DNA of 64,000 bases from a virus (Duplodnaviria; Caudoviricetes), in the IMG/VR virus record IMGVR_UViG_3300034171_000062, positions 106,558 to 170,557 of that record, one strand, 5' to 3'. The notes under the pieces are model-generated. The model did no database searches, was not told the DNA's origin, and saw only the letters and a program-made list of their open reading frames with translations. Made by a program: the position numbers and the translations under genes. Below, one piece after another: positions 8,524 to 54,220 of the stretch. Within the stretch, counting starts at the first letter, position 1. Each line of letters begins with the position of its first letter.

Positions 8524-8546
8524 GTTTCAAGAATATATCATCCAGG
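8524..8546 (+). promoter_or_regulatory. Putative phage (early-type) promoter
   Basis: GTTTCAAGAATATATCATCCAGG, one of seven similar intergenic motifs. Confidence 0.6.
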
Positions 8547-24400: not shown

Positions 24401-24435
24401 GCACCGGCGGCCGACGTCGACGATCCAAAGCGTGT
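21428..24435 (+). CDS. Virion RNA polymerase beta subunit (phiKZ gp178-like), exon 1
   Basis: GTGGRS, DMGVISEATVDSGAVG, DDPKRV (equivalent to RpoB DDANRA); frame continues after the intron. Confidence 0.88.
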
Positions 24436-24810
24436 TAACCTTAGCACCTTCGCGAGGTAACTCGCGTCGAATAACTTCCCTAAAACGGGGAACCCTCTTA
24501 ACAGAGACAATCCGTTGCGAAGTCCCTCACGAGGGATGCGCTCAACGGCCATCGAAAGCTGCGGCCCGCTGGTGGGTTCAGTGACATCCGTATAGAACCG
24601 GGTGGTCGCCTTAGGGCGATTAAAGCAAGTAGAGTACAGCCCAAGCGATTGGGGTTCAGGTCTGGGGTAATCACCCACTAATGCCTGATTAAATGGAAAC
24701 GGGAAGCTTCCTGATACACTCAGGAAGATGAGATGGTCTGACCCTTACGGTAACGTAGGGCGGGTGCCTAAGCGCACCGGCTTCGAGTAGCGATCGAAGT
24801 GGACATAGTG
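24436..24810 (+). mobile_element. Group I self-splicing intron, ORF-less, 375 nt
   Basis: P1 GTGT/GCAC with U-G at the splice site; P3 CTTCCC/GGGAAG; P4 ACGG/CCGT; P7 GGCCAT/ATGGTC; GTAA-capped P2 and P9; terminal G at 24810; removal restores DDPKRV-NFISIQNTHVIP. Confidence 0.93.
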
Positions 24811-47467: not shown

Positions 47468-47559
47468 GACACGCCTCTCACGGTTGGTTCGTTGTCTATA
47501 TAATCCGCCGCCGACCCGCCGCGGGGGGAGCGCGCGCCTGTTCAACTTGTATAGATGCT

Positions 47560-48240
47560 GACGACGTCCAGGGGGGTGTGTATTTTGTTTTGAAGACTGT
47601 GTATGGATTGGTCTTTATTGCATCCGATGCCTCTGTTGCTGTTAGCCTCCATCAAAAAACCCCAATCCATACTTTCCTCCTTCTCTTCACATCTCAAGTA
47701 ACCCTTGCAGGGTTTTCACTTGAATATGTAATTCCTTACAGGACGGATTTATTATTTGCCAGAAAGAGGAGCGACAGCGACCATCCTTTCGAGCTTACCG
47801 TAGTTCGGTAAGCGTTCGGAGTAGAATGGTTAGAAGGGGGTAGCGATAGTCTGCGCCGTTGCTGTATTGGGTTGTTTTCAAGGGTTTGTAGGGGCTTTTT
47901 AAATTACCCTAAAATCTGCGGCAAATCAAAACCCCCTCCGCAAAAAACTCTGGCGGTAAAGGTACTATGGTATAGCACTACAGCAGTGCTAAAGGCTTGG
48001 CCACCGGTGTTGGGGTGTTACAGGTTGCACCATCGGCCTAGTTGTTGGCGTTGTCGAGGGGAGTTGGGTGTGTAGGAAGGTTTGTACGGGTTCCTTCCTG
48101 GCGCTATCTTGTTCGGTTGTGTTTGCGCATGTCTGTCGCGCTTGCGCTATTTACACCGACTCCCCTTGACTGGGCTAGTGTTATTTCCTTGTGATGTGTG
48201 AGATGAACCGGGGGGCTTCGGCTTCTCGGTTTATTTTGTT
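47560..48240 (+). ncRNA. Candidate large structured non-coding RNA (or origin/regulatory region)
   Basis: No credible ORF; at least six stems including an 18-bp long-range helix with plus-strand G-U pairs; ends in a TTCG terminator. Confidence 0.45.
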
Positions 48241-48242
48241 TT
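48206..48242 (+). terminator. Intrinsic terminator with no upstream coding gene
   Basis: AACCGGGGGGC-TTCG-GCTTCTCGGTT plus TATTTTGTTTT. Confidence 0.75.
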
Positions 48243-48248
48243 AACTGT

Positions 48249-48271
48249 ATTTGAAGCACATATTACTTATG
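48249..48271 (+). promoter_or_regulatory. Putative phage (early-type) promoter
   Basis: ATTTGAAGCACATATTACTTATG. Confidence 0.5.
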
Positions 48272-50685: not shown

Positions 50686-51504
50686 TTATTTACCACGCCC
50701 GATCATAGAGGCAATGAACGTGTTCATGCGGGGTCTATCGTTGGTAAAACTGGCTTTGGCCCAGTTCTGCGCGTAAAACTCTTGATACATCTCGTTGGCG
50801 TCAGCGTACCCATCAATCATCTCCCGAATGCGCCCCAACGGCACACCGCCGTTCAGCACCCCTTGATCCATGGCGATGTTGGTGTTCACGTAGATGTACG
50901 CCTTGGTCGCCAACTCAACCAACCGTGCGTAGGTGGGGTAGACTCCAGGGTTGAGGTTGTTCATCCCCTGATCGTTCTCCACCAGGCAGGTCATCCCCAA
51001 CTGATCGCTGAGGTGTTGAATGTCGTCGCGTACCATCACTGTGTTGTCACCGATGATTTGGCAGTTAGCGGTGGACACAATGGGCATGGAGGAAATGGCT
51101 TTCATGAGATCGTTAGCCGCAGACAGCAACTGACTGCTCTGTCCTTGGTGTTGTGTGGGTATGCCGTGGTAGGTTAAATAGTTCAAGGTACGCACCGACA
51201 CGATGCGTCTGCCACCGGTGGCTTCGTACGGAAGACGAAACACGCGGGTAGCCATGTCAAACTGCTCATACGCACAGCCAGACAAGTCCACCGCAATCAC
51301 GGTACCTCCCGTGAGGTTACAATCTATGTTTACTCGGTTTTCAATAACTTTATCGCGAATCGCTGAATCGATTGAGATTGCGTCCTGATTCCCCCGCCAG
51401 CGTGCACCAAATCCGGTGATGGCTTGCGGTGAAAAGGCCAGTTGCAGTACCGACTCAGGGATCATGTGTCGTACGTTGTTAATGGCGTAAGTAATGGCAT
51501 TCAT
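50686..51504 (-). CDS. Conserved hypothetical protein divergent from phuZ
   Basis: MNAITYAI start with AAGGAG RBS; LATKAYIY motif. Confidence 0.65.
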   Translation of the reverse strand: MNAITYAINNVRHMIPESVLQLAFSPQAITGFGARWRGNQDAISIDSAIRDKVIENRVNIDCNLTGGTVIAVDLSGCAYEQFDMATRVFRLPYEATGGRRIVSVRTLNYLTYHGIPTQHQGQSSQLLSAANDLMKAISSMPIVSTANCQIIGDNTVMVRDDIQHLSDQLGMTCLVENDQGMNNLNPGVYPTYARLVELATKAYIYVNTNIAMDQGVLNGGVPLGRIREMIDGYADANEMYQEFYAQNWAKASFTNDRPRMNTFIASMIGRGK

Positions 51505-51559
51505 CGTTAGACTCCTTAGTCCGATCATAAGATGCTGCGTGGTTTGTCGAACCCTCAGA

Positions 51560-51583
51560 ATCTGAAAGATATATCATAGAAGG
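51560..51583 (+). promoter_or_regulatory. Putative phage promoter for phuZ
   Basis: ATCTGAAAGATATATCATAGAAGG. Confidence 0.6.
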
Positions 51584-51675
51584 GCTAGTGCGTGTTGCGA
51601 TCTTTCTCAACCGGCGCTGGCCAATAGAATGTAGGTATTGCGCAATACTTCCAAATGAAACTTTAGGAGCACAAA

Positions 51676-52632
51676 ATGAGTAAGACATTACGAGTGTATG
51701 GCGCGGGTGGTGCGGGCATCAATCTGGTCAGTCATTACTTCGGTCGTGAAAGCGGCGCTGGTACTGCACAGTTGGCCCCGGCTCTGATAGACACCAGTCG
51801 ATCCAATCTCAAAGGTCACCACATCGACAACGACGCCACCTACCTGGTGGAAGGTCTGGACGGCTCGGGCAAGATTCGGTCCGAGAACTACGACGAGATC
51901 AACAAGACCATCAAACAGATCCTGGTGCAAATACCAGCGGGCGATTTCAACCTCGTGGTGTTCAGTGCCTCAGGCGGTTCGGGTTCGGTGCTGGGTCCGT
52001 TGTTGATCAAGCAACTCAATGAAAAGAAACTGCCAGTCATTGCCATCGTTATCGGTACCGATGAATCCACCATCGCCGCTGAAAACACACTCAAGACCAT
52101 CAAGTCCTTGGAACTGGTTGCTAAGAACAGCAACGTGCCAGTGATCATGTCGTTCCACAAGAACGATCTGACCGGCCGTCGTTCAGAAACCGACCGGGCC
52201 GTTTGGTCGGTGATCTCTTGCCTGAGTATCCTAACGTCGGGCGAGAACGTGGAGATGGACTACCGCGACCTGGTGCATTGGGTTCAATACACTAAGGTGA
52301 ACGGCGGGCGTGCCCAGTTAGCCACCATGCACATAGCCACGTCCGCCGAGCACATGAAACGCATCACCGGGCCGTTGTCGGTAGCCAGCTTGTATTCCAA
52401 TCCCGATCAGGAACACTTGGCCACCTCAGCGGATTACCAATCGGTAGGCTACGCCGACCTCTCAGGCACCGACTTTGAACAGGTCCACTTTGTCATCGGC
52501 GTCAACGATCTTGGTCGAATCGGCCAAGACTTGAAGGCTCAGGTGAATGGCATGCTTGAAGAACGCAACGCGCGGGTTGACGTTGCGTCTCTTCTGGAAG
52601 AAAACGAATCGGGTGGGGACCTGGTTCTTTGA
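51676..52632 (+). CDS. phuZ: Phage tubulin PhuZ
   Basis: GAGGAGIN, IDTS.SN, GSGK.R, SGGSGS tubulin signature, acidic tail ending GDLVL. Confidence 0.93.
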   Translation: MSKTLRVYGAGGAGINLVSHYFGRESGAGTAQLAPALIDTSRSNLKGHHIDNDATYLVEGLDGSGKIRSENYDEINKTIKQILVQIPAGDFNLVVFSASGGSGSVLGPLLIKQLNEKKLPVIAIVIGTDESTIAAENTLKTIKSLELVAKNSNVPVIMSFHKNDLTGRRSETDRAVWSVISCLSILTSGENVEMDYRDLVHWVQYTKVNGGRAQLATMHIATSAEHMKRITGPLSVASLYSNPDQEHLATSADYQSVGYADLSGTDFEQVHFVIGVNDLGRIGQDLKAQVNGMLEERNARVDVASLLEENESGGDLVL

Positions 52633-52639
52633 TCTTACC

Positions 52640-53233
52640 GTTCCTCTACGTTGGTTGGGCGCTGTCGAATCTCATTGTGTGGATGAGTCTTACGTTAAGA
52701 CTTTCAATGAGACGCTTCAAAGCACCTACAGTATCTCCAACTGACGTTAAACCCGGCCGTGTCGCTTTGACTGGCCATTCGGTTGAGGGTTGTCCACAGT
52801 GGTCGCCGACTTGTGGGGTCGGTAGGATCTCGGACATAGACTCACTTACTGAATGAGGTCAGTATGAGACGACTGATGATACTGAGCGACGGAGCTCGCC
52901 TTGCAAACGCGGTACTCTGGATGTTACGTCCAGTACTCACGTATGGCGCGATGCTTCCGTTAGCGGCAGACGAAGACAGTGAGGTTGTTCGAGACGAGAC
53001 GATTGAGGTAGAGACTGCCGACTTCACCAGTGAAGATGGGAGTGATGCCGCACCGCCGTGGTCGGTGTAATCGACTCTGTGAACAACCAAGTGCATAGGT
53101 AGTACCTAAAGGGCGGCACATTTGTCGACCTAACCGCGAATGCGGTACGGGAGAACGGACTGGACGACGGACACTGGAGTGAGTCATTCACCCCCTCCGT
53201 ATCGCCATCCGTTCTCCCACCTTCTTTTTTTTT
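52640..53233 (+). ncRNA. Candidate large structured ncRNA downstream of phuZ
   Basis: At least 11 helices including long-range GGTTGTTC/GAACAACC and an 11-bp GGGAGAACGGA/TCCGTTCTCCC stem before a T9 tract; G-U pairs favour the plus strand. Confidence 0.6.
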
Positions 53234-53338
53234 GTCTTTGTTATACAGCGTCTCAGATCGTCTACAGCCCCCCCTATGTGTGAATTGGTACATAACTGCC
53301 CCTTCCTATGTAATGGTCCTTACAGACCACTCCAGACG

Positions 53339-53361
53339 ATTTCAGGGATATATTATCAAGG
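53339..53361 (+). promoter_or_regulatory. Putative phage (early-type) promoter
   Basis: ATTTCAGGGATATATTATCAAGG upstream of the small-gene array. Confidence 0.6.
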
Positions 53362-53397
53362 TGATAGACATATTCCCTAGTCGAAGCGAGACAACCC

Positions 53398-53799
53398 GTG
53401 ATATTAATCTTCAACGTCGATGAGCACTTGCACGACTTAAAGCATCATTTCGATTGTCCCGAATCTGCATTGCTGTGTATGGTTGGGTATCACCTATACC
53501 GAGAGCACCACCTCGATACAGGACTCGAACATATGTCGCTCAGTATCCCCTACGCTCAACACTACCGCCGCTTCCACATGTCGTTCTTGATTGAATTGAC
53601 GCTGGTGGCCTCCTCGATAGTGGCGGGCAGGGCGATGAACGGACGGTTACAACTACACAACACCGACCTCTGGGTCACCTTAGAGACAACTAGGATTGGA
53701 GCACATGCACCACCAACCGAAATCACACATACTCAACATGAGCGACTGGGCCGACGCCGTCACCGCTCTGGTGCGGCACTTCGCCTACGTCACCCTTGA
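53398..53799 (+). CDS. Hypothetical protein (array member 1)
   Basis: ORF after promoter; strand-helix start and TDLWV motif. Confidence 0.55.
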   Translation: MILIFNVDEHLHDLKHHFDCPESALLCMVGYHLYREHHLDTGLEHMSLSIPYAQHYRRFHMSFLIELTLVASSIVAGRAMNGRLQLHNTDLWVTLETTRIGAHAPPTEITHTQHERLGRRRHRSGAALRLRHP

Positions 53800-54220
53800 A
53801 CCCTACGTGACAGACTCCCAGACCCTACACGACTTAACCACTCAGTGGACAATGAAGCATTCCATCCAGTGGACTCAAGCGCAGTTGGACGATGAATTCA
53901 ATCGTCAACTTATGTGGGCCCGTTCAACGAATGCTTCAGATGCTGTGATCCTTGAGTATTTGACGGCGTTGTTCAAGGACCATATGGGAGATGTCATCTC
54001 CGACGCCGCCCATCAAGAAACCTTACTCCACGACGTTATTGAACTCACTGATCCAGTGGTGGTTTTGATCAGTGAGGTGGTGTCAGACTTGGTTTCGCCC
54101 AATCCCTGGTGGGTTTGGAGCATGCGATACAGATACGACATCGTTTTAATTGAATCGGACGAAGACTACCGAGTCAAGATCTTTAACGATAAGATCGAAT
54201 CGGGCGAATGGTCGCTATAG
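53705..54220 (+). CDS. Hypothetical protein (array member 2)
   Basis: GGAG RBS before ATG at 53705; YDIVL motif. Confidence 0.65.
   Translation: MHHQPKSHILNMSDWADAVTALVRHFAYVTLEPYVTDSQTLHDLTTQWTMKHSIQWTQAQLDDEFNRQLMWARSTNASDAVILEYLTALFKDHMGDVISDAAHQETLLHDVIELTDPVVVLISEVVSDLVSPNPWWVWSMRYRYDIVLIESDEDYRVKIFNDKIESGEWSL

Follow-up and report, generated by a model that had tools for sequence, protein, structure and literature searches.

Two probable small coding frames and a folded 3′ untranslated region in the interval downstream of phuZ of an uncultured chimallivirus-like phage

The window analyzed here comprises 64 kb (64,000 nucleotides) and represents the last part of a 170.5-kb IMG/VR record, which is about 62% complete. 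It contains the phuZ gene (51676–52632) encoding a tubulin-like protein of 318 aa with the Pfam domains PF00091 (Tubulin) and PF22334 (TubZ_C_2); this gene and the features described below for 51568–53397 lie on the plus strand. The best cultured relatives of this PhuZ are the tubulins of Xanthomonas phages, with 39% identity. Therefore, the source of the record is a distant, uncultured chimallivirus-like phage. In total, 547 PhuZ homologues were found, and they form a graded identity series (99, 88–86, 81, 76, 73, 71, and 67–65%).

Immediately beyond phuZ, positions 52633–53397 form the longest stretch without an ORF of at least 100 aa in the 170-kb record; the second largest such stretch (705 nt) is located at 47546–48250. 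A gap of 445–895 nt follows phuZ in all close relatives. In phiKZ the spacing between phuZ and gp40 is 54 nt, and the equivalent spacing in the Xanthomonas phage RTH11 is 186 nt; thus, the insert is specific to the uncultured clade. The interval considered here, which extends from the phuZ stop to a T9 tract ending at 53233, has a DNA identity of only about 50% among relatives, and the best-conserved DNA of the gap (81–88%) is a segment of 165 nt beyond the terminator.

A blastn search against 50,697 phage records gave no match, a peptide-pattern scan of PhuZ-bearing viral contigs found nothing, and scanning contigs of viral and metagenomic origin for exact 18-mers returned mostly chance matches, being useful only for L017 and L063. 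The gap sequence of an independent assembly with 99% identity (L077) is identical to that of the window apart from the length of the T run, and this comparison was uninformative. Nearly all of the 48 differences between the window and L077 are clustered at 50700–52300, in a DUF7484 gene and in phuZ, where they affect its 5′ two-thirds; the 3 kb downstream of this cluster are nearly identical, which suggests a recombination patch.

An earlier note on this DNA had described the interval as a candidate non-coding RNA. About 73% of it (52629–53070) appears to encode two overlooked small proteins, designated here ORF-A and ORF-B, and the rest forms a conserved 3′ UTR that is folded and carries an intrinsic terminator. 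Both frames were already present in the mechanical ORF list, and both are conserved.

ORF-A (52629–52856) encodes 75 aa and begins with a TTG codon overlapping the phuZ stop (cTTTGA). It was found by translating the frame of the loop of a hairpin (H1, see below). In every lineage compared this frame is open from the first bases past the phuZ stop, with no in-frame stops in 7–8 lineages versus 1–9 in the other forward frames. The overlap of the start with the phuZ stop takes the form TTGA in the window, L014, L002, and L006, GTGA in L004, L013, and L080, ATGA in L017 and L079, and TAATG in L010 and L012. The sole relative compared without a canonical overlapping start is L008, which has CTGA (the CTG being located at L008:2435–2437). 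In seven of eight lineages the H1 loop lies 179–182 nt past the phuZ stop despite about 50% DNA divergence, and the remaining lineage carries an insertion of 18 nt, that is, of six codons.

The N-terminus of ORF-A contains the conserved motif M-I-[RLK]-P-[FLV]-L-x-x-G-x-W, which is followed by a hydrophobic run; the motifs L-G-L-G-L, S-x-x-C-G, and H-S-L are found further on, and the tail is poorly conserved. AlphaFold2, applied to the alignment, predicted a helix at residues 3–39 (pLDDT >90) and a disordered remainder. This model would be consistent with a small membrane-anchored protein whose N-terminal helix probably spans the membrane and whose tail is disordered. The second codon position is weakly the most conserved one. 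ORF-A was mostly missed by gene callers, being called as a gene in some other lineages (P0123, P0121), and it is shortened to about 43 codons in L006/L007. An extension of PhuZ by frameshifting into the ORF-A frame is unlikely: the frame is open for only 5–6 codons before the stop (L004, L008), and no slippery site was seen.

ORF-B (52864–53070) encodes 68 aa (MRRLMIL...), starts with ATG and has an acidic C-terminal half. Its ribosome-binding site, GAGG at 52855–52858 as read from the sequence, overlaps the ORF-A stop and is separated from the ATG by 5 nt; GGAG-type sites are located at a matching distance from the ATG in L004, L008, and L014. No in-frame stops were found in seven sequences of six lineages, compared with 1–7 in the other forward frames, and conservation is strongest at the second codon position (0.42 versus 0.55 and 0.60). 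Pairwise dN/dS is 0.2–0.8, with dS saturated. Genes of 67–75 aa were called at this place, about 235–270 nt past the phuZ stop, in L004, L008, L013, and L077. In L002, ORF-B is cut to MRRLIVLS followed by a stop, and in L006/L007 it is deleted together with H1.

Several lines of evidence for coding are common to both frames. A test of codon usage, for which 94 long ORFs of this genome served as the training set, chose the proposed frame in all eight sequences of ORF-A and all seven of ORF-B, with scores lower than those of known genes. Indels in both ORFs preserve the frame. Moreover, ORF-A and ORF-B are fused in-frame in L004/L005, L014, and L080, giving proteins of 151–160 aa. A search of 1.8 billion proteins with a profile of both ORFs finds only the ORF-A/ORF-B family itself, including an independent fused form of 151 aa (P0121, E 4.5e-26) and one gene-called ORF-A. 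Neither Pfam nor PHROGs yielded a family for ORF-A or ORF-B, a word-based search for homologues of the fused protein of 160 aa gave no match, and hhalign revealed no similarity to the phuZ-abutting ORFs of L010 and L012.

The two ORFs share with translationally coupled small ORFs of phages and bacteria a start that overlaps the preceding stop (with one exception among the relatives compared), a second gene that begins within 7 nt and has its ribosome site over the stop of the first, and a small size; both have been largely missed by automatic annotation. They differ from typical coupled ORFs in belonging to no known family, in evolving nearly as fast as the adjacent 3′ UTR, and in alternating between fused and split forms in close relatives. 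Amino-acid identity among relatives is only 20–39%. Since they evolve fast and are fused in some relatives and partly deleted in others, ORF-A and ORF-B look like accessory factors.

The same features could be expected of a decaying remnant, in which an ancestral post-phuZ gene of about 155 aa has been split, truncated or deleted, is non-functional here, and leaves only the terminator to matter. Fused, split, truncated, and deleted forms do occur among close relatives, the divergence of the ORFs is near-neutral, and the closest pair, L004/L005, differs in ORF-B by three non-synonymous changes and one synonymous change. In L079 (1567–2130), two single-base indels relative to L017, one of them in a G run, break both ORFs; these frameshifts may be assembly errors or real decay. 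Pseudogenes, however, would collect stops, and none was found in the eight ORF-A and seven ORF-B frames at about 50% divergence. In addition, the split forms hold the stop, the SD sequence, and the ATG junction at one shared place, the hydrophobic N-terminus is conserved, and the independent assembly L077 carries an identical sequence apart from the length of the T run. We therefore regard decay to a non-functional remnant as quite improbable.

The motif GATATATCAT at 51568–51577, about 100 nt upstream of phuZ, is a likely promoter element. The pattern GATATATYAT was found three times in the window (30810, 51568, and 53347) against 0.04 expected, in all cases on the plus strand and upstream of genes, which makes it a candidate promoter consensus of this phage; looser copies, TTCAANNATATATCATC, are present at 8526 and 30804. 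No GATATATYAT motif was revealed inside the phuZ-to-terminator interval. Nor does a credible terminator follow phuZ directly, as the earlier note had observed: the first strong one is the hairpin at 53149–53218 with the T9 tract at 53225–53233, the position of which had been given correctly. With neither terminator nor promoter motif in between, co-transcription of this stretch and phuZ is very probable, and this part of the earlier proposal survives, while the separate large non-coding RNA does not. The order of the unit would thus be promoter motif, phuZ, ORF-A, ORF-B, folded 3′ UTR, and terminator, the first element being assigned by its putative role.

Beyond the terminator, positions 53234–53397 form a promoter/operator-like region of the next operon. 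This region is 81–88% identical among relatives and unfolded (z −0.94). It contains a perfect inverted repeat, TACATA-N12-TATGTA (53289–53312), conserved in all relatives and located about 35 nt upstream of the motif GATATATTAT (53347–53356), which itself lies 50 nt before the next gene. The repeat and GATATATTAT look like the operator and promoter of this operon. In L004, L008, L013, L014, and L080, an extra insert of 60–200 nt separates the U-tract from the conserved promoter region; it comprises a second hairpin, which is GC-rich and in many cases has a UUCG loop, and then TTATTCCGCCCTGAGAG, and is absent in the window, L002, and L006. The first gene past the terminator (53398–53799) has a GTG start (VILIFNVDEHL...), shows 54–66% protein identity in relatives, and overlaps the ORF at 53696–54220. 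Its homologues are uncalled in the contigs of relatives, and the annotated gaps there therefore look longer than they really are.

The earlier note had proposed that the interval is densely paired over 600 nt and represents a single structured RNA of the ROOL/OLE size class. The fold of the whole interval gave z-scores of −2.4 on the plus strand and −3.5 on the minus strand (20 shuffles each), and the parts differ: −2.4 in the first 231 nt (the ORF-A region), +0.2 in the middle 207 nt (ORF-B), and −6.0 in the last 163 nt. For 33 coding windows of 230 nt from this phage and three relatives, the mean was −0.8 (sd 1.15, minimum −2.9). Thus, in the window only the 3′ end of the interval (the last ~160 nt) is unusually folded, and dense pairing throughout was not borne out.

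The individual hairpins that had been listed are present in the sequence. Those at 52670/52705, 52841–52868, and 52912–52936 lie within coding sequence, and the homologous positions in relatives do not keep them. The long-range helix GGTTGTTC/GAACAACC (52983/53081), with p=0.03 in the window and 0.06–0.6 in relatives, is unsupported. We also rejected a long helix ('P1') that would close a domain of 90 nt at the beginning of the gap: it looked conserved in single-sequence folds, but its strands are non-homologous, with position-restricted p values of 0.005–0.44. The interval has no credible match in Rfam even at E≤10, the only hits being chance miRNA-like matches on the terminator arm. The sole Rfam match of the window at gathering score is a group I intron at 24426–24760 (RF00028, 57.2 bits, E 7e-12).

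In the ORF-A region of L004, L008, and L014, folds with z-scores from −4.5 to −6.2, far better than those of the coding controls, were found at non-homologous positions, and these lineages may possess additional, lineage-specific RNA structure. Such folds, together with the negative z-scores of the whole interval and the lack of a Pfam or PHROG family for the ORFs, would fit a non-coding structured RNA of about 600 nt, of ROOL/OLE size, in which the open frames are incidental. Like ROOL, GOLLD, and OLE, the interval has a similar overall length, a phage context, and many hairpins. Unlike them, it matches no Rfam model and appears to be mostly coding, with two conserved frames that are fused in three lineages, and the fold conserved in it covers only about 140 nt and one hairpin. 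Incidental frames would not be expected to stay open across lineages, to overlap the phuZ stop with a start, to keep an SD-ATG arrangement, to fuse in-frame, or to yield a confidently predicted N-terminal helix. About 300 nt of the middle are, moreover, missing in L006/L007. Conservation explained only by a protein-coding frame had been named in advance as one of the outcomes that would refute a large RNA; the conserved frames at 52629–53070 account for most of the conservation, and the claim therefore fails. We give very little credence to a single non-coding RNA of this size. It appears likely instead that the interval belongs to the phuZ messenger and makes up its distal part, with two coupled small genes and a folded 3′ UTR ending in a terminator.

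Structured RNA was retained in two parts of this message, the last ~140 nt and one small hairpin, and not as a large fold across the interval. The small hairpin, H1 (52805–52823), is located inside ORF-A and consists of GCCGAC, the loop UUGUGGG, and GUCGGU, encoding S-P-T-C-G-V-G. RNAalifold, applied to a codon-aware alignment of ORF-A, keeps only H1 (5–6 bp) and one further hairpin of 5 bp. In H1, 83% of the cells are paired versus 17–53% in slid controls, three pairs show compensatory changes, and the covariation score is above that of all 500 shuffles. It occurs as a single copy in the genome. H1 thus appears to be conserved at the RNA level within the coding region. It should be noted that its compensatory changes are non-synonymous (T/V, V/T, and I/I around C-G), and therefore the covariation may have a cause at the protein level.

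The 3′ module (53095–53233, ~140 nt) comprises three small hairpins of the MFE structure, hpA (53096–53108), hpB (53111–53131), and hpC (53133–53146), and the terminator arm (53149–53218). The arm is 70 nt long and closed by 11 bp, as had been described, and is followed by U9 (53225–53233). The module folds with a z-score of −5.2 (200 shuffles), and its layout was seen in every lineage, including L080 and those without ORF-B (L006/L007). In a plain MAFFT alignment, hpB shows four compensatory pairs, with 89% of the cells paired versus about 40% when slid. All three small hairpins are kept in an alignment fitted by a covariance model, in which 93.6% of the cells pair and compensatory changes occur in 33 of 45 pairs versus 6–15 in slid controls; the fit to the model inflates this count, and the margin is still large. 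In the main helix of the terminator arm, 17 of 21 pairs are compensatory across lineages. The earlier statement that G-U pairs fit the plus strand holds for these conserved 3′ hairpins.

A covariance model built from the window sequence alone matches L006, L080, L017, L008, L002, L004, and L014 (E from 3e-16 to 0.014) and gave no match in L013, L010, and L012 at E≤1. With this approach the module was detected once per locus and once in the whole 170-kb record. The last ~140 nt can be described as a conserved, covarying, single-copy folded RNA element, and the phuZ unit has its intrinsic terminator at 53149–53233. Elsewhere in this genome, the terminators found are compact hairpins of 8–13 bp, and several of these likewise have small hairpins in front of them; thus, the layout is common here, and the long arm is the unusual feature.

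In phiKZ, many compact intrinsic terminators with a shared conserved hairpin motif have been described, most 3′ UTRs are shorter than 100 nt, and short structured ncRNA candidates are derived from UTRs (PMC10914365); according to a review, ncRNAs whose role is unknown are expressed by phiKZ (PMC13282480). At its 3′ end, the phuZ unit is similar to those of phiKZ in that a GC-rich hairpin and a U tract close the unit and small hairpins precede it, and differs from them in its arm of 70 nt and its 3′ UTR of 163 nt.

These observations bear on whether the RNA could have a function of its own. Besides translation of the ORFs, the tail of the message, either the ~140-nt module or a longer piece with H1, might accumulate as a stable and abundant processed RNA with a regulatory or scaffolding role, in the manner of small RNAs derived from 3′ UTRs. 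The module has a conserved architecture and shows numerous compensatory changes, occurs as a single copy, and has been kept in L006/L007 despite the loss of ORF-B; the arm far exceeds the genome's other terminators in length, H1 covaries at non-synonymous positions, and phiKZ sets a precedent for UTR-derived ncRNA candidates. Nevertheless, the small hairpins found before several other terminators indicate that the layout may be ordinary 3′-end architecture, and no promoter motif precedes the module. We consider a dual function of this kind rather unlikely.

Transcripts that combine small ORFs with RNA hairpins are exemplified by the dual-function RNAs RNAIII/hld of Staphylococcus and SgrS/sgrT of E. 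coli, and the phuZ message would resemble them in this respect. A more far-reaching version is that the tail of the phuZ message is dual-function in the whole clade, providing both a PhuZ-coupled membrane protein (a possible spindle anchor or regulator) and an abundant, stable RNA from the 3′ module and H1 with a role in the nucleus or spindle. This version is offered as speculation and is more doubtful still.

Under the preferred reading, that of a phuZ messenger with two small genes and a folded tail, the following course of expression can be proposed. Transcription would probably start about 100 nt ahead of phuZ, at a promoter of the GATATATCAT type. Ribosomes finishing phuZ would start ORF-A at the TTG overlapping the TGA, coupling being suggested by the TTGA overlap. 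The resulting product would bear a hydrophobic helix at its N-terminus, which probably spans the membrane, and a disordered tail. ORF-B would then be translated from its own GAGG-ATG, 7 nt past the ORF-A stop. The fixed position and the coupling suggest that both products may act with PhuZ. Finally, the message would end in the folded 3′ UTR of about 140 nt, which would halt transcription before the next promoter and probably also shield the 3′ end from exonucleases.

What is new at this locus is a putative family of fast-evolving, unnamed proteins linked to PhuZ, a covarying 3′ module present in one copy, and one conserved hairpin in the coding region. More generally, large gaps of jumbo phages that appear gene-free and highly folded can hide short, fast-evolving, coupled genes missed by gene callers, and such gaps should be checked for conserved frames before they are labelled as ncRNA. 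We know of no settled account of how the phage spindle is attached to the membrane, and a small hydrophobic protein translated in coupling with PhuZ would be a candidate partner of the spindle. The single-copy covarying 3′ module, in turn, represents a defined element that may have a bearing on RNA stability or processing in nucleus-forming phages.
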